From positions 985 to 64,984 of the forward strand of contig JBAXOG010000005.1 in the NCBI GenBank assembly GCA_037133395.1: a stretch of 64,000 nucleotides of DNA, in the 5' to 3' direction. Of this stretch, positions 8,422-53,824 are shown one piece after another. This DNA comes from a bacterium (lineage in GTDB: Bacteria > Verrucomicrobiota > Kiritimatiellia > RFP12 > UBA1067). Under the pieces are notes generated by a model, which did not search any database, had not been told where the DNA came from, and saw nothing but the letters and a program-made list of their open reading frames with translations. The position numbers and the translations under genes were made by a program. How positions within the stretch are numbered: the first letter of the stretch is position 1; each line of letters starts with the position of its first letter.

Positions 8422-8803
8422 GGTACAGGGGGACAGACAATGCTTACACCCCGTGAGCTTTGCGGGCTCTGTGAGAAAAAACGGCTACACATTTTCAGGA
8501 AACGCGCTTTTCGCAAAATAGCCGCCATTCTTGGGTGCCCCTTTGAAGACAATGCTTCCCTCCTCCGATAGTTCTTTCAGATAACGCTGTGTGGTACGAA
8601 GGCTGATGGCCAGATGTTTCGTTGCCGTGGGAGCATTGATGCCCTGATGGGTCTTGATCACATTCTGCAGGCTGGTTTTTATTGATTTTACACCGCCACG
8701 GATCCCTGCCTTTACACCGCCAAATAGGGATTTTACACCGCCATGTGCGTGGCGCGAAAAAGGGGGTTCTCCAAAGGGGTACAGGGGGACAGACAATGCT
8801 TAC
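8422..8803. repeat. Duplicated segment, copy A: 26-bp motif X, then a wHTH gene fragment, then motif X again
   Basis: ggtacagggggacagacaatgcttac occurs at 8422-8447 and again at 8778-8803. The sequence in between is near-identical to 10872-11150. Confidence 0.8.
8485..8796 (-). pseudogene. 3'-terminal fragment of a winged-helix (RecG-like/AlbA_2-associated C-terminal HTH type) regulator gene
   Basis: Only about 100 aa are present. They end ..KHLAISLRTTQRYLKELSEEGSIVFKGAPKNGGYFAK, the typical C-terminal wHTH of much longer proteins, preceded by GGVK tandem units. No N-terminal domain is present. A duplicate lies at 10909..11175. Confidence 0.5.
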
Positions 8804-9696: not shown

Positions 9697-9734
9697 TTAA
9701 TTGATTTGTAGTTTTTAACTCTTTCGTAATTAGC

Positions 9735-10845: not shown

Positions 10846-11178
10846 GGTACAGAGGGATGGACAATGCTTACACCCCGTGAGCTTTGCGGGCTCTGTGAGA
10901 AAAAACGGCTACACATTTTCAGGAAACGCGCTTTTCGCAAAATAGCCGCCATTCTTGGGTGCCCCTTTGAAGACAATGCTTCCCTCCTCCGATAGTTCTT
11001 TCAGATAACGCTGTGTGGTACGAAGGCTGATGGCCAGATGTTTCGTTGCCGTGGGAGCATTGATGCCCTGATGGGTCTTGATCACATTCTGCAGGCTGGT
11101 CTTTATTGATTTTACACCGCCATGTGCGTGGCGCGAAAAAGGGGTTTCTCCAAAGAGCCGCAACAGCTTCTTCATTTT
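10846..11178. repeat. Duplicated segment, copy B: motif X variant plus the wHTH gene fragment
   Basis: ggtacagagggatggacaatgcttac (10846-10871) is followed by sequence near-identical to 8448-8775, but with one rather than three tttacaccgcca units. Confidence 0.8.
10909..11175 (-). pseudogene. Second copy of the wHTH fragment (88-aa ORF; may be expressed as a small stand-alone HTH protein)
   Basis: Same C-terminal wHTH sequence as 8485..8796. It has its own ATG (MKKLLRLFGE..) but lacks any upstream domain of the parent family. Confidence 0.45.
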
Positions 11179-11238: not shown

Positions 11239-11289
11239 TTTACGTAAAGCCAGAAACCCGTTGACTTTTTTCTGCTGGTTTGCTTAAGT
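11239..11289 (+). promoter_or_regulatory. Conserved PATR-gene promoter block P1: palindrome, 12 nt, -35, 17 nt, -10
   Basis: TTTACGTAAA at 11239-11248, TTGACT at 11261-11266, TTAAGT at 11284-11289. The same layout occurs at 25721, 35744 and 16149. Confidence 0.65.
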
Positions 11290-11343
11290 GAGAAATGTGT
11301 AGGGGACTGGTGTGCCTTGATAAAACAGAAAGGGTTTATGGTT

Positions 11344-15049: not shown

Positions 15050-16147
15050 ATGAACCCCAAAAAAACAGTAATCAGTTTGAGGCATATCGCTGAGCGCGTC
15101 GGTGTGTCGCGAATGACAGTCTCACAGGCGTTGCGCGATGACGGGCGGATCTCCTCGACAACGCGTGAACGGGTACGTGCGGTTGCCCGTGAGTTGGGGT
15201 TTGAACCCAATCCACATCTCAGCACGCTGATGGCGGAAACCGCACGTACGCGACATGGCGTATCCGGCGAAGTATTGGCTTTTATGACAAGTGAACCTAC
15301 GCGCGATGGTTGGAAGCGGTATGCAAGCGGTATCTTTGAAGCCAGCGAACGACGCGCCGTCGAGTACGGGTTTCGTCTTGAGCCTTGGTGGATCGCTGAC
15401 CCAGACATGACGCCTGCTCGTGTCAACCAGATCATCAAGTCCCGTGGAATTCGGGGGATGATCATTCCCAATGTCAGTCATCAATTCTTTGCGGATCGGG
15501 GTGGGACATTACCGATCGAATGGGAAAGGTTTTGTGTGGTGGAGATTGGGGGCAGCTTGCGGAAACCCGCTATCCATCACGTTCAGCATGATCATCAATC
15601 CGGCTTGTTTATGGCGCTCGAGAGGTTGGAAGCGCACGGTTATCGTCGGATAGGGCTGTGTTTGAGGTCCGAGGATGATCAAAGGACACATCATCGCTGG
15701 TCGGGGGCTTATGTGATCTGGCGGAGAATGAGGGGCTATGAGACGAAACTGCAGCCGCTGATCGCAGAGGAATATGAGCCTATGGCAGTACGCCGGTGGA
15801 TCCGAAAGAACCGCTTGGAGGCCGTGATCAGTCCTGGAGTCCTTCCGTTACAGGAGTGGGGACTGAGTGTGCCGGAAAAACTTGGGTTTGCTTCGCTTGA
15901 CTTGTGGGGGAAGGGTGCGATGTCCGTGGCAGGGATTGATCAGCAAAGGGTTGAGCTTGCAGCAGCAGCAGTGGATATGCTGATGACACTTCTGTGGCGC
16001 AATCAGAGAGGGGTTCCAGAACAGCCGATGAGCTTGATCATTCCCGGACGTTGGGTGGAGGGAGAAACCGTCCGCCAACGAAGAAGCATACACTTGAAAC
16101 CTATTGCCATCGAGGACGAGCAACTCGTCTGGGCTGACCGCCTTTAG
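15050..16147 (+). CDS. LacI/GalR-family transcriptional regulator
   Basis: The N-terminal HTH is ISLRHIAERVGVSRMTVSQALRDDGRISSTTRERVRAVARELGFEPNP, followed by a periplasmic-binding-protein-like sugar-sensor domain of typical length (365 aa). Confidence 0.85.
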   Translation: MNPKKTVISLRHIAERVGVSRMTVSQALRDDGRISSTTRERVRAVARELGFEPNPHLSTLMAETARTRHGVSGEVLAFMTSEPTRDGWKRYASGIFEASERRAVEYGFRLEPWWIADPDMTPARVNQIIKSRGIRGMIIPNVSHQFFADRGGTLPIEWERFCVVEIGGSLRKPAIHHVQHDHQSGLFMALERLEAHGYRRIGLCLRSEDDQRTHHRWSGAYVIWRRMRGYETKLQPLIAEEYEPMAVRRWIRKNRLEAVISPGVLPLQEWGLSVPEKLGFASLDLWGKGAMSVAGIDQQRVELAAAAVDMLMTLLWRNQRGVPEQPMSLIIPGRWVEGETVRQRRSIHLKPIAIEDEQLVWADRL

Positions 16148-16148
16148 G

Positions 16149-16198
16149 TTTACGTAAGAAAAGGTCGCAGTTGTAACCAAATGAAGCTGCTGTATAAT
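16149..16198 (+). promoter_or_regulatory. PATR-gene promoter block P4 (diverged copy with the same spacing)
   Basis: TTTACGTAAG at 16149-16158, a 12-nt gap, TTGTAA at 16171-16176, a 16-nt spacer, TATAAT at 16193-16198. Confidence 0.6.
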
Positions 16199-16271
16199 GC
16201 TAGATATTAAAAGTGATTTCAGGTTCTGCGTCAAGCGTCTTTGCCTGAGGGGATAAGTGAAAGGAGTCAGA

Positions 16272-18080
16272 ATGATGAAGACAATAAAAACGATCAGATG
16301 TGTAGTCCCTCGTATGGCTGTTTTGATTGCGAGTGCATCTATGTTGGTTATCCCTTCGTTTGGCGAGAATGGAACATGGACCAACTTGGCAGGCGGCGCA
16401 TGGAGCACGTCTGGCAACTGGACCAATGGCACGCCAGCCCAGTATGGCAGCGTCAGTACAATCCTCAATTTTAACGTCGCTGGAACCTACACCTCCAGCA
16501 ACAACTGGACGGGGACCTTCACCAACAATAGCCTGGCTTTCGGAGCCGGAACGGTGACGCTTGCGGGCGGCACCCTTGCTTTCATGAACAACGACGTCGT
16601 GATGCCGGTGGTGACGAACTATGGCGCGACGGTGACGATCAAGAACCCCCTGCTACTGGCCACAAACACCACTTTCGCCGGGGCAAACAATACAACGGCA
16701 TCAGGCGTGATCAGCGGCAGTGGCGGCATTATCCAGGCCGGGAGCGGAACCCTTACCCTCTCGGGCGCAAACACCTTTACCGGCGGAACGACGATCAACA
16801 GTGGAGGCACTCTGGCTGCCTCTGTTGCCGGTGCCTTGGGTACGGCATTCTCGGGGCCATTGGTTGTCAACGGGACGCTGAACCTGACGGCGGGCGGCAC
16901 GACGGCCTATACCTTTTCAAATTCGATTAGCGGCAACGGCACGATCAATGTGACGGTCAGTACATCTGCTCAGGCTGTTACCTTTAGTAGCAATCCCACA
17001 TGGACCAATTTTGCAGGCACTCTCAACATTGGCGTAAACCAGCCGGCAGGTTCGGGTCGTGCGACTATCTATGCTGACTTGCCTTCTGGCGCCACGGTCA
17101 ATGTCACCACAAATAGTGGGTTGCTAGTGGGGGGGTTTACCACATGTTCCGCCGCTGTCAACCTCTACGGCGGGACGGGTAATAATGGTTTCCAATTTTA
17201 CTTTGCTTCGGCAACTTGCTCGGGGCCTATTACACTTTATGCTGATACGACGTTTGGCGGACTGAATGGGACATCAACAATTTCAGGCAACATTGGGGAT
17301 GGGGGCCGTTCGTGCGGTATAACGAAAGGGGTTTGTGGTGGAAACGTAATTCTATCCGGTGTCAACACGTATTCTGGCGATACGCGATGCGTCGGTGGCA
17401 CTGGGTGGTTCAGTGTCCGCAACGCCCTGGCGCTCCAGAATAGCACGGTGGACATGAATGCATCGGATGCCGGGTCGATTGGCTTCTCTCAGAATTCGAC
17501 CTTGGGCGGACTCAAAGGGTCGCGCGATTTAGACATGAGTAACAGAACGCTGAAGATTGGAAATAACAATAAGGATACGTCCTATAGCGGCGTCTTGACG
17601 AATGGTGCCGTGATCAAGATCGGCTCGGGCGCGTTGACGCTCTCTGGCACGAACACGTACACGGGCGCAACAACAGTCTCGAACGGCATTCTGGCTGTCA
17701 GTGGCGTTCTATCGTCAAGCGGTGTGACGGTCTGCACGGGCGCAGTCTTTGCCGCTGGCAGTACGGGCGTTGTCGGCCGCGCAACGCTGGGCGGCACGCT
17801 GACATTCCAGAACAACAGCGCGCTGCTGGTGGACGTGGCCCCGCCTTTAGCGGATGCGGTTGAGGCCGCCGGAAACGTGGTGATCGGCACCGGGGTCGAG
17901 GTACGGCTCAGCGGCAACCAGCAGAAATCCGGAAGCTGGGAAATCATCAAAACCACCAGCGGCACAATCACTGGCGACCCGGTTCTCATCAACGGTTTGA
18001 ACGGTGCAAAGCTGACCCGGACAGCCACAGCCATCGTGCTGACCATCCCGCCCAGGGGCACGATGGTCCAGATATTCTAA
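16272..18080 (+). CDS. PATR-type surface protein
   Basis: The ORF track gives 16257..18080. ATG 16272 follows AAGGAG (16261-16266) after 5 nt. The protein starts MMKTIKTIR.. and carries GTWTNLAGGAWSTSGNW. The last 432 nt are near-identical to 14200-14631. It ends LTIPPRGTMVQIF. Confidence 0.8.
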   Translation: MMKTIKTIRCVVPRMAVLIASASMLVIPSFGENGTWTNLAGGAWSTSGNWTNGTPAQYGSVSTILNFNVAGTYTSSNNWTGTFTNNSLAFGAGTVTLAGGTLAFMNNDVVMPVVTNYGATVTIKNPLLLATNTTFAGANNTTASGVISGSGGIIQAGSGTLTLSGANTFTGGTTINSGGTLAASVAGALGTAFSGPLVVNGTLNLTAGGTTAYTFSNSISGNGTINVTVSTSAQAVTFSSNPTWTNFAGTLNIGVNQPAGSGRATIYADLPSGATVNVTTNSGLLVGGFTTCSAAVNLYGGTGNNGFQFYFASATCSGPITLYADTTFGGLNGTSTISGNIGDGGRSCGITKGVCGGNVILSGVNTYSGDTRCVGGTGWFSVRNALALQNSTVDMNASDAGSIGFSQNSTLGGLKGSRDLDMSNRTLKIGNNNKDTSYSGVLTNGAVIKIGSGALTLSGTNTYTGATTVSNGILAVSGVLSSSGVTVCTGAVFAAGSTGVVGRATLGGTLTFQNNSALLVDVAPPLADAVEAAGNVVIGTGVEVRLSGNQQKSGSWEIIKTTSGTITGDPVLINGLNGAKLTRTATAIVLTIPPRGTMVQIF

Positions 18081-18135
18081 GCCAGGAAGAAGTGGAAGAC
18101 GAAAGAGTTTTTTAACCGTAAAGAGCGCAAAGAAA

Positions 18136-19965
18136 ATGAAGGCAACAACTATGAAACACACCCTCACCCTCCTCACTACCCTGCTGCTTGCGCCGTTGGC
18201 CGCGCTGCACGCCGCTGCTGTAAAGCCCAACGTCGTCATCGTTCTTGTCGATGACATGGGCTATGGCGATGTCGCTGCCCATGGCAATCCGGTGATTCGG
18301 ACGCCCCAGCTCGACCGGCTCCGCAACGAGTCTGTGCGCCTGACGGACTTCCACGTCGATCCGACCTGCTCCCCCACCCGCGCCGCGTTGATGACCGGGA
18401 AATATTCCCATCACGTCAAGGTGTGGTCCACCATTGCCGGCGGCAATCATCTCCGCGCAAATGAACTGACCATGGCCGATGCCTTCCGCGCGAACGGGTA
18501 CCGCACGGGCATGTTCGGCAAGTGGCATCTCGGCTCGAACCTGCCCTACCGGCCGATCGACCGTGGTTTCGACGAGTGGCTTGGCGAGGGGGACGGCGGT
18601 GTCGGCACCACCGACGATTATTTCTTCAACGACCGCGTCAACGATCGTTTCATCCACAACGGAGAACGCGATAAGCCGATGAAAGGTTGGGCGGAAGAGG
18701 TATTCTTCAACTCCGCGATCGATTTCATCCGCAGCAGCAAGAAAGTAAAGAAACCGTTCTTCATCTACCTCCCCACGTATGCGGTCCATCATCCGGTCAC
18801 CCTCCCTGATCCCTCATGGGCGGATGATTACAAAAAGAAGGTCGATCCCGGAATGGCGTTCTTCTTCGCGGCGATCGAGAAAATCGACGCCCAGATCGGC
18901 AGGCTGCGTGCCACGCTTGCCGAAGAGGGGCTCGACCGCGATACGATCCTGATCTTCATGACCGACAATGGAGGAACAGGCGGAGTGAAGCTCTTCAACG
19001 CCGGCATGAAAGGCAGAAAGGGAAGTGTCTACGATGGCGGCCACCGGGTACCCTGTTTCATTCATTGGCCCGCAGGCGGGCTGCGGCAGGGTGCGGACAT
19101 CACCTCGCTCAACGCAAACTTCGACGTGCTTCCCACGTTGGTCGATCTCTGCGGACTCAAGCTTCCCCGGAATGTGGATTTCGACGGACGGAGTTTCCGC
19201 GCGCAGTTGCTAGATGCCAAGGCGAAAGCTCCCGAACGCACGCTGTTCGTCGAGCTACAGCGGCGCATGACGTCGGAAAAGTGGCGTAACGCGGTGGGCA
19301 TGACTTCGCGCTGGCGGCTAATTGATAACAAGCAGCTCTATGACATCAAGGCGGACCCGGGACAGACGAACAACGTGATTGCCGCGCACCCGGATGTCGT
19401 CGCAGCCATCTGCCAAGAGTTCGAGTCTTATTGGACAAAGGTCACACCGGGAGATCGCGACCGAGTGGAATTCATTGTTGGCGACAACCGCCAAACGGAA
19501 ACATTCCTTTCTTCCTCGGACTGGTATATCGCGGCTCCACCATGGAATCACGCTGAGATCGCCGATGGCATCATTGCGTCGGGCGACTGGATAATCCGCG
19601 CAGCAAGTGCCGGGACCTATCGTTTCGAAGTTCGCCGCTGGCCGCGCGAGGCTGATGCCGAACTCGCCGGAGTGCCCGCGATTCACAAGACCGAAGACTC
19701 GTGGGCCTTCCACGGGCCGAACCACGATTTGCTATATGGCAATGCCCGAGGAACAAGTTTCAAGAAGCTCCCCGTGGCATCGGTCCGCCTGACGGTGGGC
19801 GAGAAAACCCAAACCCTTGCCGCCGCCGCGGGCGCCAAGGAAGGCTCGTTTGATTTTCAACTGACGACCGACCGCAGCTTCCCCGTCAAAGCCGAACTTC
19901 TGGACCCTTCAGGCAAAGTGATCACCGGCGGCTACTACGTCTATTGCCGTAAAAAGGAACCGTAA
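18136..19965 (+). CDS. Secreted S1-family (Cys-type) arylsulfatase
   Basis: Signal peptide, then PNVVIVLVDDMGYGDV and the formylglycine motif CSPTRAALMTGKY (Cys codon 18367-18369), followed by GKWHLG and FMTDNGG. There is a C-terminal extension of about 170 aa. Confidence 0.9.
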   Translation: MKATTMKHTLTLLTTLLLAPLAALHAAAVKPNVVIVLVDDMGYGDVAAHGNPVIRTPQLDRLRNESVRLTDFHVDPTCSPTRAALMTGKYSHHVKVWSTIAGGNHLRANELTMADAFRANGYRTGMFGKWHLGSNLPYRPIDRGFDEWLGEGDGGVGTTDDYFFNDRVNDRFIHNGERDKPMKGWAEEVFFNSAIDFIRSSKKVKKPFFIYLPTYAVHHPVTLPDPSWADDYKKKVDPGMAFFFAAIEKIDAQIGRLRATLAEEGLDRDTILIFMTDNGGTGGVKLFNAGMKGRKGSVYDGGHRVPCFIHWPAGGLRQGADITSLNANFDVLPTLVDLCGLKLPRNVDFDGRSFRAQLLDAKAKAPERTLFVELQRRMTSEKWRNAVGMTSRWRLIDNKQLYDIKADPGQTNNVIAAHPDVVAAICQEFESYWTKVTPGDRDRVEFIVGDNRQTETFLSSSDWYIAAPPWNHAEIADGIIASGDWIIRAASAGTYRFEVRRWPREADAELAGVPAIHKTEDSWAFHGPNHDLLYGNARGTSFKKLPVASVRLTVGEKTQTLAAAAGAKEGSFDFQLTTDRSFPVKAELLDPSGKVITGGYYVYCRKKEP

Positions 19966-19968
19966 AAC

Positions 19969-22200
19969 ATGATGAACAAACTTACATTCAATTTGATCCT
20001 GCTGTTGGCCACCGCCACCACCTTCGCCGCCGCCCCGGGAGGGTTGAAACTCTGGTATGATAAACCGGCCCAGAAATGGGAGTCCGAAGCCCTTCCGCTG
20101 GGCAACGGCCGTTTGGGCTGCATGGTCTTTGGCGGCGTGCCCAAGGAACAGATCCAATTCAACGAGGACTCCCTCTGGATTGGTGACGAGCAAAACACCG
20201 GCTCTTATCAAGCTTTTGGTGATCTTTTTCTGGAGTTCAACCATTCGGAGGTTAGCAACTACAGGCGCGAGAGTGATATCTCCCGGGCAGTCCACACAGT
20301 CTCCTACACCAGTGGGGGTGTGAATTATCGGCGCGAATACTTCGCAAGCCATCCCGCAGGCGTCATGGTGTTCCGGTTTATGGCGGACAAACCCGGCGCC
20401 CTCACCGGTTCGATCACCCTTGCCGACGCTCACAAGGGGGTTGTCATCGCGGCAGGCAAGGGATTGACGATCAAAGGCAACCTTTCCGGCTACCCCGAGA
20501 ATCTCCCCAAGAACCGTAAAAGGTTTGGCATCATCCTTGATTACGAGGCACAGGCGATCGTGAACAACGAGGGCGGCACCCTCGAGGCCAGGGAGGGCAA
20601 GCTGGTGTTCAAAGAGGTTGATACCCTGACGATCTATCTCGATGCCGGCACCGATTACCTTGCCGACCGAAGCCGGAAATGGCGGGGCACGCATCCGCAC
20701 GAGGCAATTGTGGGGCGGCTGGAGAAAGCATGTGCCACCCCGTATGGTAAGTTGCTGGCCGAGCATGTCAGCGATTACCAATCGCTCTTCAACCGCTTCA
20801 GCCTCAACCTTGGGTGTAGCGAGCGGAAATCGGTCGAGCTACCCACCAACAAGCGACTGGACGCATACCGGGGAGCCGAGTTCGCAAACCCAGAGGGCAA
20901 GGAACGTTGGAAATTCCAAACGGAGAAGGCCACCGGGGTGCCCGACCCCGAGTTGGAGCAACTTTTGGTGCAATATGCCAGGTACCTGATGATCAGCTGC
21001 TCACGTCCGGGTGACATGCCGGCAAACCTTCAAGGGATCTGGAACAACAGCAACACCCCGATGTGGGATTGCGATTACCACAGCGACATTAACATCGAGA
21101 TGGACTACTGGTTCGTGCAGCCCGCCAACATCGCGGAATGCTTCCTCCCGTTTGCCGAGTGGCTCAACAGCCACATTCCCGTCCGGCGTGAAGCCACCCA
21201 GAAGGAATTCGGTGTTTCGCGCGGATGGATGAACCGCAACGGAAGCGGAGTGTTCGGCGGCGGCAGCTACCATTGGGTGGCCGGTGACTCAGCATGGCTG
21301 GTGCAGAACATCTGGGACCACTACGCATTCAATCAAGACCGCAAATACCTGGAAACCCGGGCTTACCCGATGCTCAAGGAGCTGTGCGAGTTCTGGGAGG
21401 ATTTTCTGATAAAGCGACCCGACGGCACGCTGGTGAGCCCCAAGAGCTGGTCGCCCGAGCATGGCCCGATGGCGGAAGGTAACTCCTACGAGCAGCAGTT
21501 GGTTTACGATCTCTTCACTAATTTCATCGAAGCCTCCGAGGCGCTCGGCGTTGACGAGAGCTTCCGGGCGAAGGTCGGGCAAATGCGAGCCCGCCTGATG
21601 GGGCCGAAAATAGGAAAATGGGGCCAACTTCAGGAGTGGGCCGAGGACATCGACGACCCCAAGGACCAGCACCGGCATCTCGCACATCTGATTGCGGTGC
21701 ATCCCGGCCGACAGATCTCGCCCCTGACCACACCGGAGCTAGCCAAGGCTGCTGCGGTCTCCCTCAACGCCCGGGGCGATCGCGCCAACGGCTGGAGCCG
21801 GGCCTGGAAGATCTGCATGTGGGCCCGTTTGCACGATGGCGACCGCGCCTACAAGTTGCTGCAGTCCGTTGGCATGGCGGCCACTCTTCCCAACCTCTTC
21901 GATACCTGCCCGCCCTTTAATATCGATGGCAACTTTGGCTATGCCGCAGGGGTTTGTGACATGCTCCTCCAGAGCCAACTCAAGGACGAGCACGGCAATT
22001 ACATTCTCCATTTTCTGCCGGCGCTGCCAAAGGCGTGGCCCACTGGCTCAGTCAAGGGCCTCCGGGCTCGCGGCGGCTACACGGTCGATATGGAGTGGAA
22101 GGGAGGGAAGGTGAGCAATTACCACATCAGTTCCCCGGATGGACGTCCCGCCAGGGTGCGTATCGACGGACAGCTCAAGACCGTCGATACAAAACCATAA
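19969..22200 (+). CDS. Glycoside hydrolase family 95 (alpha-L-fucosidase/galactosidase type)
   Basis: The N-terminus LWYDKPAQKWESEALPLGNGRLGCMVFGGVPKEQIQFNEDSLW is the characteristic GH95 opening. The length is 743 aa. The start is 3 nt after the sulfatase stop. Confidence 0.85.
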   Translation: MMNKLTFNLILLLATATTFAAAPGGLKLWYDKPAQKWESEALPLGNGRLGCMVFGGVPKEQIQFNEDSLWIGDEQNTGSYQAFGDLFLEFNHSEVSNYRRESDISRAVHTVSYTSGGVNYRREYFASHPAGVMVFRFMADKPGALTGSITLADAHKGVVIAAGKGLTIKGNLSGYPENLPKNRKRFGIILDYEAQAIVNNEGGTLEAREGKLVFKEVDTLTIYLDAGTDYLADRSRKWRGTHPHEAIVGRLEKACATPYGKLLAEHVSDYQSLFNRFSLNLGCSERKSVELPTNKRLDAYRGAEFANPEGKERWKFQTEKATGVPDPELEQLLVQYARYLMISCSRPGDMPANLQGIWNNSNTPMWDCDYHSDINIEMDYWFVQPANIAECFLPFAEWLNSHIPVRREATQKEFGVSRGWMNRNGSGVFGGGSYHWVAGDSAWLVQNIWDHYAFNQDRKYLETRAYPMLKELCEFWEDFLIKRPDGTLVSPKSWSPEHGPMAEGNSYEQQLVYDLFTNFIEASEALGVDESFRAKVGQMRARLMGPKIGKWGQLQEWAEDIDDPKDQHRHLAHLIAVHPGRQISPLTTPELAKAAAVSLNARGDRANGWSRAWKICMWARLHDGDRAYKLLQSVGMAATLPNLFDTCPPFNIDGNFGYAAGVCDMLLQSQLKDEHGNYILHFLPALPKAWPTGSVKGLRARGGYTVDMEWKGGKVSNYHISSPDGRPARVRIDGQLKTVDTKP

Positions 22201-22250
22201 AGACCATTTCATCTTCGATTTTTATATGAGTGTCGTATAAGGAGTCAATA

Positions 22251-24263
22251 GTGAGACGAAGAACCGCTCTGTTTGTGCTGATGACCGTTGTCCTAGGGTT
22301 GCAGTCCCTTGCCGTTGATGGGCTGAAAGTGGCATTCCTCTTCACCGACCACATGGTCTTGCAGCGCGAAATGCCTGTTCCAGTCTGGGGTTGGGCAGAT
22401 CCTGGCGTGAAGGTCACGGTTGAGTTCGCTGGTCAAACGAAAACCGCCTTAGCCGATGCGAGCGGTAAGTGGTCCGTCAAACTGGATGCAATGTTCGCGA
22501 GCGCTGTACCAAGCATATTGAAAATCTCCCGAACCCCGAACCCTGACCCGTCCGCTGGAGGCGTATCCGCGAAGGTGGAACCCTTAATCATCACCGACGT
22601 CCTCGTCGGTGACGTCTGGCTCTGTTCCGGCCAGTCGAACATGAAGATGGAGGTTTGGGGTTGCGCCCAAGCGGAAGAGGAAATTGCCAATGGCCGCTAT
22701 CCGGAAATCCGGCTTTTCACGGTGGCGCCTTATTCAGCGCTGACCCCGACCAATGCGGTGGTTGGGGCGTGGGAACCCTGCTCGACTCAGACGGTTGGAA
22801 AATTCCCCGCCGTAGCCTATTTCTTTGGCCGCGAGCTGCACAAGGAACTCAAGATTCCCATCGGCCTGCTGCACAGTGCCGTGGGCGCGACTGCGGCGGA
22901 AGCGTGGACCCGTCTGGAGGCGCTTAAGACCATCCCTGCACTTGCAGAACGGGCTGAGGCGGAAATCTCACAGATCAAGTCACAGGAGAACGACAACAAG
23001 CGGTTCGTCACTGACCGCACCGCCTGGGAAAAGAAGTACAGCGTGGAGCCTCCGCCCGTCGCCGAGGCAGCTCGCAACTGGGCCGATCCTGAACTGAAGA
23101 CTGACGACTGGTCATCGACAACCAATCCCAACCAGTGGGTACAGCTTGGCACCAAGTCGGGCGGCGTGTTCTGGGTACGCAGGGATGTCACCCTTCCAGA
23201 ATCTGCAGCCGGCAAACCGTTCTTCCTTGGCCTCAAATGGTTAAGCGAGCAGTACGACACCACATTCTTCAACGGTGTTGAGGTCGGCCGCGCCAGCGAC
23301 AAGGCCCCAGATTTCTACAACCAGGCCCGACACTACAAGGTCCCCGGCAAACTCGTGAAGGCCGGACGGAACGTCATTGCCATGCGAATCGTTTCCGCCA
23401 CCAAACTGCGGGTGGGCAATATGCTGGGTTTGCCTGTGGCAGACCAGGCAGCCGTTGGTAACAAGTGGCTGATGAAAACAGAAAGCACCTTTCCTGCTCT
23501 GCCGCCAGAGGCGCTCAAGTCACGCCCGAAGCCGAACACTATTCCATTCCGCTCCGTCTCGGCATCCCTTTACAACGGCATGATCGCCCCGCTTATACCC
23601 TTCGCATTCAAGGGCGCGATCTGGTACCAGGGCGAGAGCAATGCGGGCCGCGCGGGCGAGTATCGGAAGCTGCTGTCGCTGATGATCCGCGACTGGCGCG
23701 CGCAGTGGGGCCGGTCCTTCCCGTTCATCATCCAGCAACTCGTGAACAACGGTGCGCCTGCAAAAGATTCCAATGAGACCGGGAACTGGCCGTTGGTACG
23801 CGAGGCGCAGATGCAAGTCGCCGACGCGTTGCCAAGCTGCGGCGTCGCCATCGGCATAGAACTCGGCAGCGCCGTGACGATTCATCCGCCAAACAAACAA
23901 GATGTCGGCAAACGTCTCGCGCTCGTTGCGCTGGAGAAAACTTACGGACAGAAGATCGAGTCGAGTGGCCCGCGCTTTGACTCGATGAAGGTTGAGGGCA
24001 GCGCCATCCGCGTGACATTCACGCATGCCGCCGGTTTGATCGCGAACGGAGGCCCGCTCAAGAATTTTTCCATCGCCGGCGCCAATAGAATGTTCTTCTG
24101 GGCTGACGCGAAAATCGCTGATGGCGCAGTCATCGTGAGCAGTCCCCAGGTGCCTCAGCCGGTGGCGGTACGATACGCCTGGGCTGACAACCCTGAAGGA
24201 TGTGCCCTCTTCAATCAATCCGGCCTGCCGGCTGCCCCTTTCCGCACCGACGACTGGAAATAA
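22251..24263 (+). CDS. Sialate-O-acetylesterase-like SGNH carbohydrate esterase
   Basis: The ORF track gives 22230..24263. GTG 22251 follows AAGGAG after 6 nt. Motifs include FTDHMVLQR..PV.VWGWA, the SGNH block CSGQSNM and WYQGESN. It is a paralogue of the N-terminal two-thirds of 48209..51205. Confidence 0.8.
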   Translation: MRRRTALFVLMTVVLGLQSLAVDGLKVAFLFTDHMVLQREMPVPVWGWADPGVKVTVEFAGQTKTALADASGKWSVKLDAMFASAVPSILKISRTPNPDPSAGGVSAKVEPLIITDVLVGDVWLCSGQSNMKMEVWGCAQAEEEIANGRYPEIRLFTVAPYSALTPTNAVVGAWEPCSTQTVGKFPAVAYFFGRELHKELKIPIGLLHSAVGATAAEAWTRLEALKTIPALAERAEAEISQIKSQENDNKRFVTDRTAWEKKYSVEPPPVAEAARNWADPELKTDDWSSTTNPNQWVQLGTKSGGVFWVRRDVTLPESAAGKPFFLGLKWLSEQYDTTFFNGVEVGRASDKAPDFYNQARHYKVPGKLVKAGRNVIAMRIVSATKLRVGNMLGLPVADQAAVGNKWLMKTESTFPALPPEALKSRPKPNTIPFRSVSASLYNGMIAPLIPFAFKGAIWYQGESNAGRAGEYRKLLSLMIRDWRAQWGRSFPFIIQQLVNNGAPAKDSNETGNWPLVREAQMQVADALPSCGVAIGIELGSAVTIHPPNKQDVGKRLALVALEKTYGQKIESSGPRFDSMKVEGSAIRVTFTHAAGLIANGGPLKNFSIAGANRMFFWADAKIADGAVIVSSPQVPQPVAVRYAWADNPEGCALFNQSGLPAAPFRTDDWK

Positions 24264-25720: not shown

Positions 25721-25771
25721 TTTACGTAAAGCCAGAAACCCGTTGACTATTTTCCGACGATTTGATTAAGT
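25721..25771 (+). promoter_or_regulatory. Conserved PATR-gene promoter block P2
   Basis: TTTACGTAAA at 25721-25730, a 12-nt gap (gccagaaacccg), TTGACT at 25743-25748, a 17-nt spacer of different sequence, TTAAGT at 25766-25771. Confidence 0.65.
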
Positions 25772-35743: not shown

Positions 35744-35794
35744 TTTACGTAAAGCCAGAAACCCGTTGACTTTTTTCTGCTGGTTTGCTTAAGT
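35744..35794 (+). promoter_or_regulatory. Conserved PATR-gene promoter block P3
   Basis: TTTACGTAAA at 35744-35753, a 12-nt gap, TTGACT at 35766-35771, a 17-nt spacer identical to P1, TTAAGT at 35789-35794. Confidence 0.65.
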
Positions 35795-35848: not shown

Positions 35849-38800
35849 ATGAACTCAATGAAGAAGAGGTTATACAGAACAGCGGGACAGATGCTGGTCG
35901 CTCTGTTATGGGTGTTGGCACCTGTGGCTTTTGCTGGTAATGCCCCCTGGAGTGGCGGCGCTAATAACAACTGGACGGATGCAGGCAACTGGGTGGGCGG
36001 AGCCTATCCCGGCGCGACCAGCGGCACCACCAACCCGGACATCGCATCGTTCACGAATAACCCATCCAACAAGGCTCCGGCATTCAATGTCGCCAATATC
36101 AACCTTGGCGGTTTTACCTTCGATATCGGCGCAGGCGCGTTCACGCTCGGCACCACCGGCGGCAATGCTGTCCTCCTCTCCAGCGGCGGGAGCATCACCG
36201 TCAACAGCGGTGACACGGCCGCCCAGATCGTCAACGCCCCGCTTGTCATCCAGAATGCCTCGGGCGGCAGTTCTGGGGTGTACACGAATCTGAATAATTC
36301 TGCCACCTCTGCAACCCTTACCTTGGGCGGTAGCATCAAAGGAATGGCGACGACAGGCAACACTACCGCGCTCACCATCGGCGGGCTCAGTGTTGGAGCG
36401 AACACGGTTTCCGGCATCATCAGCGACGGCACCGCTGGCGGCGCCGTGTCGCTGACCAAGGTCGGCAGCGGAATATGGGTCCTGTCGGGTATCAACACTT
36501 ACACTGGGGCGACCGTGGCCAATGGCGGGGTTGTGTTTACTCCGATGCCTGGCTCTGTTAGTGGCATTCCGCAGGTTATCGGCACGCTGCAAATCACCGG
36601 CACGATGACCAATACGAGCAGTGTTTCGATTGCCAACGGGGGCACGCTCATTGACGGCAGTTCCACTGCCGCCAGCAATAACAACGTCACCAATCGCATC
36701 AACCCGGCGGCCACGCTGACGATGGGCGGTTCCAGTGGCGGCGGCACATTCACGCTGGCCGCCCCGGCTGCAGGTAGCACGCACAGCCAGACATTGGCAG
36801 GGCTTTCGATCGGCGCGGGTGGGAATACCATCAATGCCAGCGCCGCCACTGGTACGAACAAACTCTCCTTCAGCGGCGCGAGCGGCAGCGTTTACAGCCG
36901 CAGCACGGGCGGCACGGTTACTTTTGCCACCACCAATACGGCGGGGTTCAACGTCAGCTTCGCCAACACGCCGACGGGTGCCGGTGTCTCGGGCACCTCC
37001 GCTCCGCTCCTCATCGGCGCGATCCTCGGCGGTACCATCTGGGGTGGCACCGACTTTGTCGCTGCCAATTCCGGCACCGTGGCTGCGCCTACTTATGACA
37101 CTACGCTGACCGCAGACAAGAACGTGAACGTGACTGGCAACCTTTCGGGTGGCCCCCTCTCGGTCAACAGCCTGCGTTTGGCCGACACCACGAGCCGCAC
37201 CGTGATCCTTACGGGCACCAACACCATTGCCAGCGGCGGCATCCTGCTTCCGAGTACGGTGACGGCCGACAGCGTAAACCATACCATCACCGGCGGCTAT
37301 CTCACCAGCGGCACGGGCGACCTCTGGATCTATGCCGCCTCAGGAAATCAGGGTGCCTCCCCCCGCAGCGGTGGAGCTAACGGTAATCCGCGGGGGGCTT
37401 ACTATGCCATGACCATTGCGTCACCGATCATTGACAACGGAACGACTCCGGTGTCGCTCACGATCGGCGGCAGCGGCTACTCGCAGGTTCATATTATCAG
37501 CAACAACACCTACACGGGCGGCACCTATCTGGATAACGGGATGCTGGCCATCGATTCGGACAGTGCCTTTGGAGCCTCCAGCGGCGCGGTTACCGTAACG
37601 AGCGGAGCAAATAATTACCTTCGTCTGAACAACGCCATCACCAACAGCCGCAACTTCGTCATCAACTCCGGCGCCGTCCTCAACGTTGGAGGACCTACTC
37701 TGACCCTGAACGGTTCGCTCACCGGCGGCGGCAATCTGATGTTGGGGTTCTATGGCAGCACCGGTGTCGGTCTGATTTTGAACAATGACGAGAACGGTTT
37801 CACGGGAACCTACACGGTTGGCTCTGCCCTTAGGGCCAACGAGGGCGTCGGGCTTTCAGCCAATGCGAACCTTGACCTGGCGTCTGATGGAGGAAACGCC
37901 CAATCATACGGTTGTGGCACCCTCCAAACCTCGGCCAATGTCACTCGCTCGCTCGGTACCGGTCCTGGCCAAGTGCAGTTCACCACCGGTCAAGGCGCTG
38001 TTGGCGGCGGGTTCTCGGCGGTCGGCGGCCCTGTGACGGTGAGTCTGGGCGGGCTCGGCACGCCCGCAACCCTCACCTACGGATCCGGTGCGTTCGGCCT
38101 TGGGAATGCCGTAAGTTCTAGCCTTGTCCTTCAAGACCCCACCGCCAATAACACGTTGATCTGGGCCAATCCGATCGCCAACAACGGCAATATGGTGTGG
38201 GTCAACCAAGCCGCGCCCACTGCAGGCACCAACACGGTTGCGACCATGACCGGCGTCCTCAGTGGTACGGGTGGTATGACCAAAGAAGGGCTCGGTCTTC
38301 TCATTCTCTCTGGCACGAACACCTATACAGGCCAGACTCGGATCCTGAAGGGTACTCTCAGTGTCGCATCGCTCGGCTCGGTGAACGGAGCCACGAGCAA
38401 TCTCGGTCAGCCGTCTTCGGCGACCAACGGTACGATTGTCCTGGGTGGGAATGGCGGATATGGGGCTAATGCTGTTGCGTTGACCTATACCGGTTCAGGT
38501 GAAACCACGGATCGGATTCTCGAAATCGCCACCACGATTGGCAAGATCACACTGGAACAGGCCGGAACCGGGTTGTTGAAATTCGCAAGTCCCATCGTCG
38601 TGTCCGCTGTGGGTGATGCGGGTAAGACGCTTATCCTGCAGGGCTCGACCTCCGGCACAGGCGAGCTATCCGGTGGTGTGATCGATGGAACAAATCTCTC
38701 GACTGTTGCGGCGGCTGCGCTTGGTGCGGACCGGCTGGCCATAATCGCACCCGCCGATGTGAATTACGGCCAGTTGCGCGTCGGCAACAGGGTCAGCGGT

Positions 38801-39400
38801 AAGGGGATCGCGCCGGGAACCTATTTGACAGCCATTCCTGGTAATAGTACAACCGGAGTGCTGAGCCAAGCCACCACCGAGGCGCTGACCAATGGCCAGC
38901 AGGTGGTCTTCACAGGCTTTACGACGGTCACGAAGACCGGGACCAACCTCTGGAATGTTCTTGGCGCGAACACCTATTCAGGCATCACCACGGTCAGCAA
39001 TGGCGTGCTCGGTCTTTCGGGTAACCTCGGCAGCAACATCATCGTCAAAGGCGGTGCGAAACTTTCGGCGGGCGCCGCGGGCGGCGTGGGGACGCTCTCT
39101 ACCGCCGGTCTGATGACCTTCGAAACCAACAGCCGTCTCCTGGTGGATGTGGCATCGGCTACCGCGGATACGATCACCGCGGTCGGTAATGTCACGCTCA
39201 CAGGAACAGTCACGCTGGAAGTCAGCGGCGATCAACTACGAGGCGGAAGTTGGAAAGTGCTGGAGTCCACGGGCGGCACCATCACGGGCAGTTTCGTCCT
39301 CTCCGGCGCCCGGAGCGGATCGAAGCTCACGACGAGCGCCAACAGCAAGGAGATCTGGCTGACTATTCCGCCTAAGGGCACGATGATCCGGATATTCTGA
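35849..39400 (+). CDS. PATR-type surface protein
   Basis: The ORF track gives 35813..39400. The conserved start ATGAACTCAATGAAG is at 35849. It has a signal peptide and NNWTDAGNWVGGAYPG, with repeated LILSGTNTYTG units. It ends LTIPPKGTMIRIF. Confidence 0.8.
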   Translation: MNSMKKRLYRTAGQMLVALLWVLAPVAFAGNAPWSGGANNNWTDAGNWVGGAYPGATSGTTNPDIASFTNNPSNKAPAFNVANINLGGFTFDIGAGAFTLGTTGGNAVLLSSGGSITVNSGDTAAQIVNAPLVIQNASGGSSGVYTNLNNSATSATLTLGGSIKGMATTGNTTALTIGGLSVGANTVSGIISDGTAGGAVSLTKVGSGIWVLSGINTYTGATVANGGVVFTPMPGSVSGIPQVIGTLQITGTMTNTSSVSIANGGTLIDGSSTAASNNNVTNRINPAATLTMGGSSGGGTFTLAAPAAGSTHSQTLAGLSIGAGGNTINASAATGTNKLSFSGASGSVYSRSTGGTVTFATTNTAGFNVSFANTPTGAGVSGTSAPLLIGAILGGTIWGGTDFVAANSGTVAAPTYDTTLTADKNVNVTGNLSGGPLSVNSLRLADTTSRTVILTGTNTIASGGILLPSTVTADSVNHTITGGYLTSGTGDLWIYAASGNQGASPRSGGANGNPRGAYYAMTIASPIIDNGTTPVSLTIGGSGYSQVHIISNNTYTGGTYLDNGMLAIDSDSAFGASSGAVTVTSGANNYLRLNNAITNSRNFVINSGAVLNVGGPTLTLNGSLTGGGNLMLGFYGSTGVGLILNNDENGFTGTYTVGSALRANEGVGLSANANLDLASDGGNAQSYGCGTLQTSANVTRSLGTGPGQVQFTTGQGAVGGGFSAVGGPVTVSLGGLGTPATLTYGSGAFGLGNAVSSSLVLQDPTANNTLIWANPIANNGNMVWVNQAAPTAGTNTVATMTGVLSGTGGMTKEGLGLLILSGTNTYTGQTRILKGTLSVASLGSVNGATSNLGQPSSATNGTIVLGGNGGYGANAVALTYTGSGETTDRILEIATTIGKITLEQAGTGLLKFASPIVVSAVGDAGKTLILQGSTSGTGELSGGVIDGTNLSTVAAAALGADRLAIIAPADVNYGQLRVGNRVSGKGIAPGTYLTAIPGNSTTGVLSQATTEALTNGQQVVFTGFTTVTKTGTNLWNVLGANTYSGITTVSNGVLGLSGNLGSNIIVKGGAKLSAGAAGGVGTLSTAGLMTFETNSRLLVDVASATADTITAVGNVTLTGTVTLEVSGDQLRGGSWKVLESTGGTITGSFVLSGARSGSKLTTSANSKEIWLTIPPKGTMIRIF

Positions 39401-39488
39401 GCCAGAGTTTTTTTACCACGGAATACACGAAACTTCACGAAAGTGGATGAGAGAATTTAGCTACGGATTTTGAGGGGGAGAAGAGATT

Positions 39489-39569
39489 AACCACGAAGAA
39501 CACGAAGAGCACGAAGAAAATAGAAGTTGGATGAGTTAAACCTTTGTGTCCTTCGTGATCTTCGTGGTG
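39489..39569. repeat. Hairpin repeat, copy H3 (three-unit arms)
   Basis: aaccacgaagaacacgaagagcacgaag (39489-39516) pairs with ctttgtgtccttcgtgatcttcgtggtg (39542-39569). Confidence 0.75.
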
Positions 39570-39607
39570 AAAAATTTGGGTAGTGGGCAAAGCCCACATG
39601 AGGGGGA

Positions 39608-41374
39608 GTGATGGAAAATCGATGTATGAAGTATTGGGCAATCGTTGCTGTATGCATTCCGTGTTTGTGCGTGGATGCTGCTGACGTGAAGGTGATACGC
39701 GTGGCGGATTATGGCGCGATCAGTAATGACGGGCTGGATGACACGCCTGCGGTGCAGGCTGCGCTGAAGGCGTGCGCTGGTGCGCCGTCACGGCTCGTGT
39801 TCGGTCCTGGCCAGTATGATTTTTATCCTGACCGCGCGCCGGAGCGTTATCTCTTCGTCAGCAACAATGATGAGGGGCTTAAGCGCATCGCCTTTCCGCT
39901 GGGAAACTCCGAAAGTATTGAGATCGACGGCCAGGGCGCGCTCTTCATGTTCCGGGGTTGGATCACGCCGTTCGCGCTAGACCACGCCAAGAACATCACG
40001 CTGAAGAATTTCTCGATGGACTGGACGCGTACCTTCCATAGCGAAGGCAAGATCCTGGAGGTCAATACCAACGGGCTCACGGTCAGTTTCTCCGAAGCAT
40101 TTCCGTATGCAGTCCGCAACGGTATCCTTGTCTTTACGGACGGGAAGAAGAGTCAGGAGCAGCAGACCACAGTTAAAGGCTCAGAACTCACCTACCCTTA
40201 TGGCAGTATGCTGGAGTTCGATGCGCAGAAGCGTGAGACCGCCTACATGGCCCGTGATTACTGGGTGAAGGGCGGGGTGATGGCACAGGACCTCGGTCAG
40301 CACAAGGTCCGCATCATACTGCCGAAACTGACGGGGACGGTCGGCAATATCCTGGTCTTCGGTCCGAGTCACCGCGACTGTCCGGGCATCGTGATCAGTG
40401 ACAGCGCCAACGTGACAGTGAACCACGTGAACCTCTATCATTGCGGTGGCATGGGTGTGATTGCTCAACGCAGTCGTGACATTACCGTAGACCATGTGCA
40501 AGTCACGCCCGCGCCGGGCAGCGGCCGGGTCGTCAGCATCACGGCTGACGCCACGCACTTTGTGAACTGCTCTGGAAAAATTATTTTGAGCAACTCTCTC
40601 TTCGAGAACCAGAAGGACGACGCGACCAATGTTCACGGCATCTATGCCCGCATGGCGCGTCTGCTTGCACCGGATTTGATCGAGGTGCAACTGCTCCATC
40701 CGCAACAGCAAGGGTTCGATTTCATCGTGCCCGGAGGTAAACTCGAGCTGGTGCATGGTCCGAGCCTGGTCACCTACGGCGAGGCAATCGTCAAAACAGT
40801 CGAGCGGGTGAACAAAGAGTTTACGCGCGTCACGCTGACCCAGCCGTTGCCGGCTGAAAGTATCGTCGGCGACGTGGTGGCGAGCACAGATGGTTATCCT
40901 GAGACCTGGATTCACCACTGCGTGATCCGCAATAACCGCGCCCGCGGCATCTTGCTCGGCTCCCGCGCAAAGATGGTGATCGAAGAAAATGTTTTTCACA
41001 CACCCGGCGCAGCGATCCTGCTGGAGGGCGATGGACGTTTCTGGTACGAGCAGGCTGGCGTGCGCGATTTGGTGATCCGTAAGAACACGTTTGATAACTG
41101 CAACTTCGGCGTGTGGGGCAAGGCGACCATCGAGGTTGGCGCAGGCATTGAGAAAACGTGCCGGGCGACCAGCCGCTACAACCGCAACGTCGTGATCGAA
41201 GATAATCTGTTTCGTACTTTTGGCAGCGGTTCGCTGGTGCAGATGTATTCGGTGGACGGCTTGACGATTCGTAGCAATCGCGTTGAAAAGACTGGGGCGT
41301 ATCCGGCCAAGGCGGGCGCGAATGACAAGCGGTTTGACATTGTGGAGAGCGACAACGTATCGATCAGCGAGTAG
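39608..41374 (+). CDS. Secreted right-handed beta-helix glycosidase, possibly GH110-like (alpha-1,3-galactosidase type)
   Basis: 588 aa; ATG 39611 is the likely true start. N-terminal VIRVADYGAISNDGLDDTPAVQAALKAC (pectate-lyase-3-type opening), then YLFVSNNDEGLKRIAFPL...IEIDGQGALFMFRGWITPF...NITLKNFSMDW and NQKDDATNVHG. The GH110 call rests on remembered family patterns only. Confidence 0.55.
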   Translation: MMENRCMKYWAIVAVCIPCLCVDAADVKVIRVADYGAISNDGLDDTPAVQAALKACAGAPSRLVFGPGQYDFYPDRAPERYLFVSNNDEGLKRIAFPLGNSESIEIDGQGALFMFRGWITPFALDHAKNITLKNFSMDWTRTFHSEGKILEVNTNGLTVSFSEAFPYAVRNGILVFTDGKKSQEQQTTVKGSELTYPYGSMLEFDAQKRETAYMARDYWVKGGVMAQDLGQHKVRIILPKLTGTVGNILVFGPSHRDCPGIVISDSANVTVNHVNLYHCGGMGVIAQRSRDITVDHVQVTPAPGSGRVVSITADATHFVNCSGKIILSNSLFENQKDDATNVHGIYARMARLLAPDLIEVQLLHPQQQGFDFIVPGGKLELVHGPSLVTYGEAIVKTVERVNKEFTRVTLTQPLPAESIVGDVVASTDGYPETWIHHCVIRNNRARGILLGSRAKMVIEENVFHTPGAAILLEGDGRFWYEQAGVRDLVIRKNTFDNCNFGVWGKATIEVGAGIEKTCRATSRYNRNVVIEDNLFRTFGSGSLVQMYSVDGLTIRSNRVEKTGAYPAKAGANDKRFDIVESDNVSISE

Positions 41375-41404
41375 ATCGAGGTGGATTGGGGAGGGGGAGA
41401 TTTT

Positions 41405-41471
41405 AACCACAGAGAACGCAAAGAACTCAAAGAAAGAAATTGATCTTTGTGATCCTTGTGTTCTTTGTGGT
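41405..41471. repeat. Hairpin repeat, copy H4 (CACAAAG variant with compensatory changes in both arms)
   Basis: aaccacagagaacgcaaagaactcaaag (41405-41432) pairs with ctttgtgatccttgtgttctttgtggt (41445-41471). Its 3' 53 bp are repeated at 41783-41835. Confidence 0.7.
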
Positions 41472-41602
41472 AAATTCTATCTGCGCTGTGAACGGTTTCG
41501 GGTTGATGTATTAACCGCAACCAGCCTTCGCCAAACGGCTTCCACCTTTGCTAAAGCTACGGCGGATAAAACGGCGGTCAGGAAGAACGGGAAGAACAGG
41601 GT

Positions 41603-41778
41603 GCATCTGAGATTCATTGGCCTGTTAACTGGGCAGATAAGCTGGGCGTATAGGCGTCCTCGCCTGTACACTGGTCCGGTAGCTGCCGGACCAGTCATAG
41701 ACACCACGCTTCTGCCTTCGCCAAGGCTACGGCGCGGCAGGCGCCTATACGCCCAGGGTTGCAACGAATCTCAGATGC
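41603..41778. repeat. Palindromic element E1, about 175 bp (MITE- or REP-like, or a structured RNA)
   Basis: The termini gcatctgagattc / gaatctcagatgc are inverted. The inner arms ctgggcgtataggcg..cgcctg / caggcgcctatacgcccag pair. A central nested hairpin is ctggtccgg-tagctg-ccggaccag. A second copy is at 59188-59365. Confidence 0.65.
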
Positions 41779-41879
41779 GCCCCAAAGAACTCATAAAAAG
41801 AAATTGATCTTTGTGATCCTTGTGTTCTTTGTGGTGAATAATTTTTAATAGGGATTGATAATTGAATCGGGGGGATCAG

Positions 41880-48154: not shown

Positions 48155-48208
48155 GTTGTCAATAAACGACGGAACAGAACTTAAAGCACAGACAGGAATA
48201 CACAATCC

Positions 48209-53772: not shown

Positions 53773-53824
53773 GTAACAACGTTGAAAAGCGCGAATCGTA
53801 TAAATGAAAAATAGGGAATGACTC

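Follow-up and report, generated by a model that had tools for sequence, protein, structure and literature searches.

A ten-base palindrome as the predicted operator of a LacI subfamily at PATR-led glycan-degradation units of a Kiritimatiellia bacterium

Local sugar regulators of the LacI/GalR family (PurR, GalR/GalS, CcpA with its cre sites, RbsR) have a LacI-type helix-turn-helix (HTH), a periplasmic-binding-protein-like effector domain and a hinge leucine, and their targets are carbohydrate-utilization genes. In a survey of the family 1173 of 1303 motifs were even palindromes with a central CG, the motifs were normally 16–22 nt long and more than 75% of the sites lay 30–140 nt 5' of start codons (PMC4052901). 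Here we describe a 64,000-nt stretch of DNA from a bacterium of the Kiritimatiellia (contig JBAXOG010000005.1, positions 985–64,984; the whole stretch analysed is called the window), in which the 10-bp palindrome TTTACGTAAA, or a one-base variant of it, TTTACGTAAG, stands at four predicted promoters, P1–P4, each 5' of a gene for a secreted PATR-repeat protein. The window also encodes one LacI-family regulator. Protein and site share the traits of the family: the HTH, effector domain and hinge leucine are present, the site is an even palindrome (TTTAC-GTAAA) with a central CG, it lies beside the regulator gene, in many relatives at an autoregulatory position, it is found next to carbohydrate-utilization genes, and the distance of 105–123 nt to the PATR ATGs is within the 30–140 nt range. 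Comparison of related sequences makes it very probable that the palindrome, with YTTACGTAAR as its tolerated form, serves as operator for a distinct subfamily of LacI-family proteins.

The locus differs from described LacI/GalR systems in several respects. Its half-site is TTTAC, whereas the common one is (T)GnAAnC, and only 10 bp are strongly conserved instead of 16–22; the initial annotation had rightly remarked that the half-site departs from the usual LacI/GalR consensus, yet two typical features of the family, the central CpG and the leucine of the hinge helix, are present. The residues at LacI positions 17, 18 and 22 are R/K, M and L/Q in the subfamily. The effector domain has diverged so far that no NCBIfam or PDB match of the window protein extends beyond the HTH, and past the usual core the subfamily has a conserved C-terminal tail, P-x-G-I-E-N-E-x-L (16072–16147; IAIEDEQL in the window protein). 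The host phyla, of the Planctomycetes-Verrucomicrobia-Chlamydiae (PVC) group, lie outside the PMC4052901 survey.

A further likeness is to the GntR/IdnR branch of Escherichia coli. The best NCBIfam HTH matches of the window protein are GntR, UriR and IdnR, all far below the equivalog cut-offs (46 vs 400 bits), and TTAC/GTAA half-sites occur in both operators. The recognition helix of GntR/IdnR contains the same K-M dipeptide. In the consensus operator of E. coli GntR, ATGTTACCCGTAACAT (PMC10450161), the half-sites are 2 bp wider apart (GTTAC-CC-GTAAC versus TTTAC-GTAAA here), and the targets differ.

The position of the palindrome recalls another group of sites. GalR at OE (−60.5) modulates the gal promoters through the alpha subunit of RNA polymerase, and Cra and CcpA activate from sites 5' of the −35 element. 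Like these, the palindrome at P1–P4 would be a lone dimer site 5' of −35, at a position consistent with face-of-helix dependence; its centre at about −52.5, however, is computed from predicted promoters, whereas polymerase contact is known for the others. By functional analogy only, the locus resembles polysaccharide utilization loci (PULs) of Bacteroidota with their SusR, hybrid two-component or extracytoplasmic function (ECF) sigma/anti-sigma regulators, in that a locus-linked sensor, a glycan-enzyme cluster and a surface-protein lead gene occur together; family, mechanism and phylum differ, and the lead gene here encodes a PATR-repeat protein rather than SusC/SusD. Kiritimatiellota and Verrucomicrobiota play a major part in the degradation of sulfated and complex polysaccharides. 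To our knowledge, almost nothing is known on how they switch on their enzyme clusters.

The assignment of the palindrome to a LacI operator is based on its footprint beside homologous regulator genes, its enrichment, its covariation with the recognition helix and its fit to the family. Enrichment was determined in 80 JGI metagenome loci (793 kb), which were retrieved by LacI protein similarity alone from an alignment of helix-sharing homologues. They contain 43 copies of TTTACGTAAA, distributed over 27 loci; the runner-up among all 1024 ten-base palindromes has 9 copies and 19 composition-matched palindromes have 0–4 copies each. For 31 of the 43 copies an end of the LacI gene is no more than 300 nt away, and in front of many homologues the site is found 19–75 nt before the LacI ATG. 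Among 76 unique sites, picked by requiring ACGT, the positions outside this centre (0–2 and 7–9) are 88–97% conserved. An extended palindrome of 16–20 bp was considered and rejected, the flanks not being complementary except for C…G in the P1–P3 block. Near distant LacI homologues that have no site, a search for variant palindromes found nothing recurrent.

Searched together with the spacing of the window promoters, as TTTACGTAAA-N12-TTGAC, the pattern gave at least 120 matches in genome contigs, and among those listed, which do not include the source genome, almost all are single chance matches in unrelated taxa; in viral contigs there were 71 single background matches. The palindrome is present twice, 11–32 nt apart, in L086 (545/577), L133 (482/493), L178 (575/607) and L180 (6877/6905). 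These genomes are unrelated, Oscillospiraceae and Bathyarchaeota among them, and the pairs may be unrelated regulatory sites or repeats.

When contigs encoding LacI homologues of decreasing identity were compared with the window, the palindrome was found beside the regulator gene over the range from 83% to about 31% identity, in diverging flanks. Exact copies lie 1–72 nt past the LacI stop codon in L198, L199, L201 and L214 (57–67% identity) and in L204 (50%). L198 (66%), L199 (66%) and L201 (57%) have a single TTTACGTAAA per 10–17 kb, 72, 1 and 45 nt past the stop, respectively, followed by 12 unrelated bases, by TTGCGT, TTTTCT or TTGAGT, and 16–17 nt further on by a −10-like hexamer. The copy of L204, 25 nt past the stop, precedes a sulfatase gene, and a copy with one mismatch precedes a GLAA-B gene. 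In L205 (50%) TTTACGTAAG is located 5' of a GLAA-B-LacI gene pair, CTTACGTAAG between LacI and GH106 and ATTACGTAAG 5' of GH43, each 12 nt ahead of a TT(G)-type hexamer. The three T[T/A]TACGTAGA sites of L210 (40%) are all intergenic, and Ruficoccus sp. ZRK36 (L209; 35%) has ATTACGTAAA and TATACGTAAG in the region upstream of LacI.

In loci with gene calls all 14 of 14 sites are intergenic. A cruder test, with stop-free stretches of at least 200 codons in place of genes, put 38 of 76 sites inside them, a depletion, the test being too permissive because such stretches cover 89% of bases at 57% GC. The genes 3' of the site in relatives encode a sulfatase, a GLAA-B beta-helix protein, GH106, GH43, an SASA esterase, an MFS transporter, a metallophosphoesterase, a PEP-CTERM protein and LacI itself. 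The initial annotation had proposed a dimeric-regulator site that controls the PATR-led units. The comparative evidence supports a site for a dimeric regulator; the site is not specific to PATR genes, since other genes stand downstream in relatives. In L228 (LacI 40%; 13449–20378) there are six exact TTTACGTAAA within 10 kb, 5' of genes for a metallophosphoesterase, a PEP-CTERM protein and unannotated products, which indicates that the regulons of the subfamily are not limited to carbohydrate-active enzymes. An AraC-type gene is convergent to LacI in L228 and in Ruficoccus. In the orthologous LacI–PATR intergenic region of L213 (about 2090–2150) the promoter TTGTGT-16-GATAAT and the 12-nt gap are kept, while the palindrome has decayed to TTTACATACA and has lost its CG centre.

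Site and protein change together. In L211 and L212 the recognition helix is VSRIT[V/A]SMALR instead of VS[R/K]MTVS[L/Q]ALR, and 3' of LacI there is TGTACGTACA instead of TTTACGTAAA; the change affects the same symmetric position in both half-sites. The homologue P0034 (39% identity), with the helix VSVATVS, has no site in its loci L207/L208. Protein and site look as if they had co-evolved, the number of independent cases being small.

The window protein has the LacI-type HTH (PF00356, E = 2.7e-15, residues 10–54), which is also matched by LacI-family HTH structures in PDB, and, weakly, the effector domain (PF13377, E = 1.7e-9, 38.4 bits vs a cut-off of 26.5). Its recognition helix is VSRMTVSQALR and its hinge PNPHLSTLMAE; the corresponding sequences of the subfamily are V-S-[R/K]-M-T-V-S-[L/Q/M]-A-L-R and P-N-P-x-L-S-x-L-M-A-E, and in the alignment the hinge segment P-N-P-x-[LI]-[SG]-x-[LV]-M is conserved. 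Aligned by eye, FEPNPHLSTLMAE corresponds to YIPNRVAQQLAG of LacI and its leucine to LacI L56. The identical protein was found in metagenome contigs only. Among taxonomically named homologues the best (55% identity) comes from a Kiritimatiellae metagenome-assembled genome, and more distant ones are from Verrucomicrobiota; the subfamily occurs in Kiritimatiellota/Verrucomicrobiota-type bacteria and is centred on the PVC group.

Within the window a search for TTTACGTAAA with at most one mismatch returned exactly four sites, the three exact ones and the variant at 16149, all at the positions that had been given for them, correct to the base (Table 1). Shuffled windows contained a mean of 0.67 such sites and four or more in 1 of 100 shuffles. 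What lifts the positions of the four beyond chance is that all are found 105 nt (P1–P3) or 123 nt (P4) before a PATR ATG and that the placement is homologous in diverged relatives. Re-reading the sequence bore out the described architecture at all four promoters, namely the 12-nt gap, TTGACT or TTGTAA, a 17- or 16-nt spacer and TTAAGT or TATAAT, and also that LacI ends directly before P4: its stop codon TAG (16145–16147) is 2 nt ahead of the palindrome. TTAAGT itself is a poor −10 (3/6 consensus, no A at position 2) and was missed by a consensus scan. An invariant TG-n in front of it makes an extended −10 in 7 of 7 block copies from the window and related contigs, in which TTGACT is likewise invariant and 8 of 17 spacer positions vary. 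The P4-type orthologues have TTGnnT-16-nAnAAT. Conservation of the hexamers while the spacer varies supports the assignment of these elements as sigma-70-type promoters.

P1–P3 belong to three copies of a 158-nt direct repeat, which runs through the 5' untranslated region (UTR) into the signal-peptide codons, with 87% and 72% identity between the copies in the window. Only P4 is therefore an independent data point within the window. The initial annotation had noticed that the spacer of P2 differs while hexamers and palindrome are retained, which is correct (6 of 17 spacer positions differ from P1, and the 28 nt from the palindrome through −35 are identical), and, with the divergence of P4 in view, had argued for selection rather than simple recent duplication. 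That the site is under selection follows from its conservation across lineages; P2 and P3 do not show it, and the likeness of P1–P3 is, to judge by the repeat, a matter of duplication or gene conversion.

The P1–P3 block, ACTTTACGTAAAGCCAGAAACCCGTTGACT-17-TGnTTAAGTGAG, recurs in three contigs, L218 (two copies), L219 and L222, and in each of them a copy is found directly 3' of the gene for a LacI paralogue 52–53% identical to the window LacI. In L219, which comes from the same metagenome project as a contig with the window's LacI, a PATR protein gene follows the block. The window LacI, an open candidate in the initial annotation, has comparative support as binder, and for P1–P3 the paralogue is a second candidate. 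An AGG…A flank is found at the sites beside window-type LacI orthologues (P4, L198, L205, L214, L215), and the G variant TTTACGTAAG with the AGG left flank also occurs in L205 (8064) and L215 (4333). P4 probably belongs to the window LacI; P1–P3 may be served by the paralogue, by both proteins or by whichever of the two is present, and with a shared core motif cross-talk between the paralogues is possible.

The 12-nt gap of the block, GCCAGAAACCCG (11249–11260, 25731–25742, 35754–35765), is almost invariant in 7 block-type promoters from at least 3 contigs (L218, L219, L222) and is better conserved than the promoter spacer; AGAAACC is also present in the gap of L212. The gap could be the site of a second factor or a polymerase contact. 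An ECF-sigma promoter with GAAAC in the gap was considered and rejected, there being no CGTC-like −10 at the right distance and the gap not being kept in P4-type promoters. The 5' UTR (11290–11343 and its equivalents at P2 and P3) is kept across block copies and contains a small AGGG(G/A)-N7-(C/T)CCT hairpin, for which the consensus fold is weak (−1.07 kcal/mol), with 0 compensatory pairs and no Rfam match; no Rfam family scored above threshold anywhere in the window.

For binding, promoter use, direction of regulation and effector we infer the following scheme. A dimer of the regulator would sit on the palindrome, with one TTTAC half-site read by each HTH, and the leucines of the hinge helices would enter the DNA at the central CpG in the manner of other members of the family. 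The four operators would lie 12 nt 5' of sigma-70-type −35 hexamers of promoters that drive the PATR-led glycan-degradation units. P4 would be served by the LacI whose gene ends 2 nt before it and P1–P3 by the same protein, by the 52–53% identical paralogue or by both. The sugar-free protein would stay bound and keep transcription low until a product of the degradation of the target polysaccharide released it. In this complete form, with operators at P1–P4 and repression, we hold the scheme with moderate confidence.

Several observations weigh against it. The half-site differs from the usual AANCGNTT core; strong conservation is limited to 10 bp, the symmetrised flanks being only weakly conserved (R-T/A-Y) out to about 14 bp, whereas LacI motifs have 16–22 nt; about half of the 80 protein-selected loci lack the site in the DNA at hand; and paralogues with near-identical recognition helices appear to share the core motif (L218, L219, L220, window). 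Simple steric repression from a lone operator near −52.5, 5' of −35, would be unusual, and the strict 12-nt spacing, together with a second class at 22 nt, looks more like contact with RNA polymerase.

These last points lead to an alternative in which the same protein on the same operator is an activator or dual regulator that acts through RNA polymerase, via the alpha C-terminal domain or sigma region 4. The 12-nt gap to TTG is kept although the gap sequence and the downstream genes (PATR, sulfatase, GLAA-B, GH106) differ, the distance from the palindrome to TTG has peaks at +12/13 and, a helical turn further on, at +22, and with a single site per promoter looping is not available. The periodicity, however, is weakly supported, the +22 class consisting largely of a few groups of related sequences. 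Repression is favoured because LacI-family proteins are mostly repressors (PMC4052901), because the core promoters are good (P4, 10/12; P1–P3, TTGACT and an extended −10) and look self-sufficient rather than activator-dependent, because the L213 promoter was retained beside the decayed site, and because the palindrome overlaps the LacI gene's own promoter in distant homologues, where it supplies the −10 (TAAAAT or TAAAGT) or the −35 (TTTACG) just 5' of the ATG, a layout of autorepression. Repression is therefore our preferred direction, and activation or dual control is possible but a good deal less probable; all other readings taken together are unlikely. If the protein is a repressor, the most plausible route, by analogy, would be that it occludes an UP-like contact of the alpha subunit or makes a contact like that of GalR at OE. 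That the palindrome might itself be the −35 of the window promoters was rejected, since P1–P4 have no −10 16–18 nt downstream; the layout is seen at other homologues. A variant of the polymerase-contact idea, which we regard as doubtful, is that paralogous LacI sensors in one PVC-group genome share the 10-bp core and act from a fixed point about 52 or about 62 bp upstream of the transcription start. If so, many PATR-led glycan loci would be on a shared, combinatorial switch, a PUL logic unlike that of Bacteroidota and unlike one-repressor-one-operon LacI systems.

The remaining alternatives dispense with the LacI protein. The palindrome might be bound by another, global regulator encoded outside the window, with LacI nearby only because both are found in glycan loci; the strongly conserved part falls short of the usual length of a LacI operator, the same core is common to several operons and several LacI paralogues, and an AraC-type gene adjoins LacI in L209 and L228. 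We consider this improbable, for the 31 of 43 sites close to LacI, many of them just before its ATG, are hard to reconcile with it, as is a proximity that persists to about 31% identity across different gene neighbourhoods, and the motif shifts with the LacI helix in L211/L212 and is absent beside the VSVATVS-type homologue; no other regulator gene is recurrent across the loci. Position and AT-richness of the palindrome fit a distal UP subsite, and the spacing to −35 is fixed, so that an intrinsic alpha contact at about −57 to −48, needing no regulator, could be imagined. An invariant ACGT centre in an exact palindrome is not general AT-richness, however, the same 10-mer occurs elsewhere over −10, over −35 and right after stop codons, and its enrichment is tied to LacI genes, which makes this reading very improbable. 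Least credible is a functionless site shared by descent of the four PATR 5' regions from one duplicated block. P1–P3 are indeed repeat copies, and the PATR genes, mosaic in structure, have their 5' and 3' ends in common, but P4 retains 9 of 10 palindrome bases versus 4 of 12 gap bases, exact copies occur at orthologous as well as non-orthologous promoters in many lineages, where the flanks are unrelated, and no other palindrome approaches its copy number (43 vs at most 9); these observations already contradict it. An intrinsic terminator of LacI at the palindrome was also rejected: the scan found no plus-strand terminator near 16149, and a 10-bp AT-rich palindrome leaves no loop.

Literature searches on TTTACGTAAA, on TTACGTAA with LacI and on Kiritimatiellota with LacI returned nothing relevant for bacteria. 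The subfamily, its short and sharply conserved operator, its spread in the PVC group and the link to PATR-led clusters thus appear to be new in the searchable literature. A LacI-family regulator-operator pair for carbohydrate genes is of a known kind and involves no new principle; a well-known family is extended into phyla where it was uncharted. Genome scans for YTTACGTAAR beside promoters should delimit regulons, group enzymes acting on the same substrate and nominate PATR surface proteins as their co-regulated partners. The compact (10 bp), highly conserved operator-regulator pair might also serve as an orthogonal part in synthetic circuits.

Table 1. Predicted regulatory elements and the genes or units at P1–P4 in the window.
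Feature	Position	Strand	Remarks
P1 palindrome TTTACGTAAA	11239..11248	strandless	105 nt 5' of PATR ATG at 11344
P1 12-nt gap gccagaaacccg	11249–11260		between palindrome and −35
P1 −35-like hexamer TTGACT	11261..11266	+	12 nt past palindrome; invariant across 7 block copies
P1 −10 TTAAGT; extended −10 TGcTTAAGT	11284–11289; 11281..11289	+	17-nt spacer from −35
PATR secreted protein after P1	11344..14631	+	Pfam PF12951, E = 7e-21; TIGR02601; start as in contig L001
LacI-family regulator, candidate binder of palindrome	15050..16147	+	PF00356, PF13377
P4 palindrome variant TTTACGTAAG	16149..16158	strandless	123 nt 5' of PATR ATG at 16272
P4 12-nt gap aaaaggtcgcag			between palindrome and −35 TTGTAA
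P4 core promoter TTGTAA-16-TATAAT	16171..16198	+	−35 16171–16176, −10 16193–16198; 10/12 consensus matches
P4 unit: PATR protein, sulfatase, GH95, SASA-type esterase	16272..24263	+	
P2 palindrome TTTACGTAAA	25721..25730	strandless	gap sequence as in P1
P2 core promoter TTGACT-17-(TGa)TTAAGT	25743..25771	+	−35 25743–25748, −10 25766–25771
PATR protein after P2	25826..28723	+	
P3 palindrome TTTACGTAAA	35744..35753	strandless	gap sequence as in P1
P3 core promoter TTGACT-17-(TGc)TTAAGT	35766..35794	+	−35 35766–35771, −10 35789–35794
P3 unit: PATR, GLAA-B/beta-helix, FGE-sulfatase/HZS_alpha, SASA-GH43, two GH127	35849..56245	+	

The window is a same-strand array of glycan-degradation genes that encode GH106 rhamnosidases, a sulfatase, GH95, SASA esterases, GLAA-B/beta-helix proteins, FGE-sulfatase/HZS_alpha proteins, GH43 and GH127. 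The array includes four complete PATR-repeat secreted proteins, each first in a unit, the one LacI-family gene and two AbiEii toxin-antitoxin remnants. The P3 unit would be co-transcribed, to judge from same-strand order and short gaps only.

The first AbiEii gene, together with a DUF6577 gene (8944–10805), is located 5' of P1 and is bracketed by a 277-nt direct repeat (8422–8698 and 10846–11122; 99% identical), so that the region looks like an inserted or duplicated cassette. The second AbiEii gene (24834–25490) is just 5' of P2.

The PATR genes also share their 3' ends over about 300 nt (87–92%; 14186–14485/17635–17934 and 319–618/28397–28696), and the region of the stop codon with the following TTTTTTTACCACG is common at 93% (14584–14658/39353–39427). 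With shared 5' and 3' ends and differing middles, they appear as a recombining family of surface-protein genes.

A 150-nt repeat is found at 24329–24478, 28836–28985 and 29745–29894 (96% and 72%). The copy at 29745–29894 is the 5' end of a beta-helix gene (29745–31535), and the other two, in the apparently empty gaps 24264–24833 and 28724–29744, are probably remnants of gene 5' ends.

Two very large proteins, encoded at 31490–35536 (1348 aa) and 44186–48154 (1322 aa), have a PF18582 (hydrazine-synthase-alpha-like) middle part and a C-terminal FGE-sulfatase domain, one of them also NPCBM, an unusual architecture within the glycan loci.

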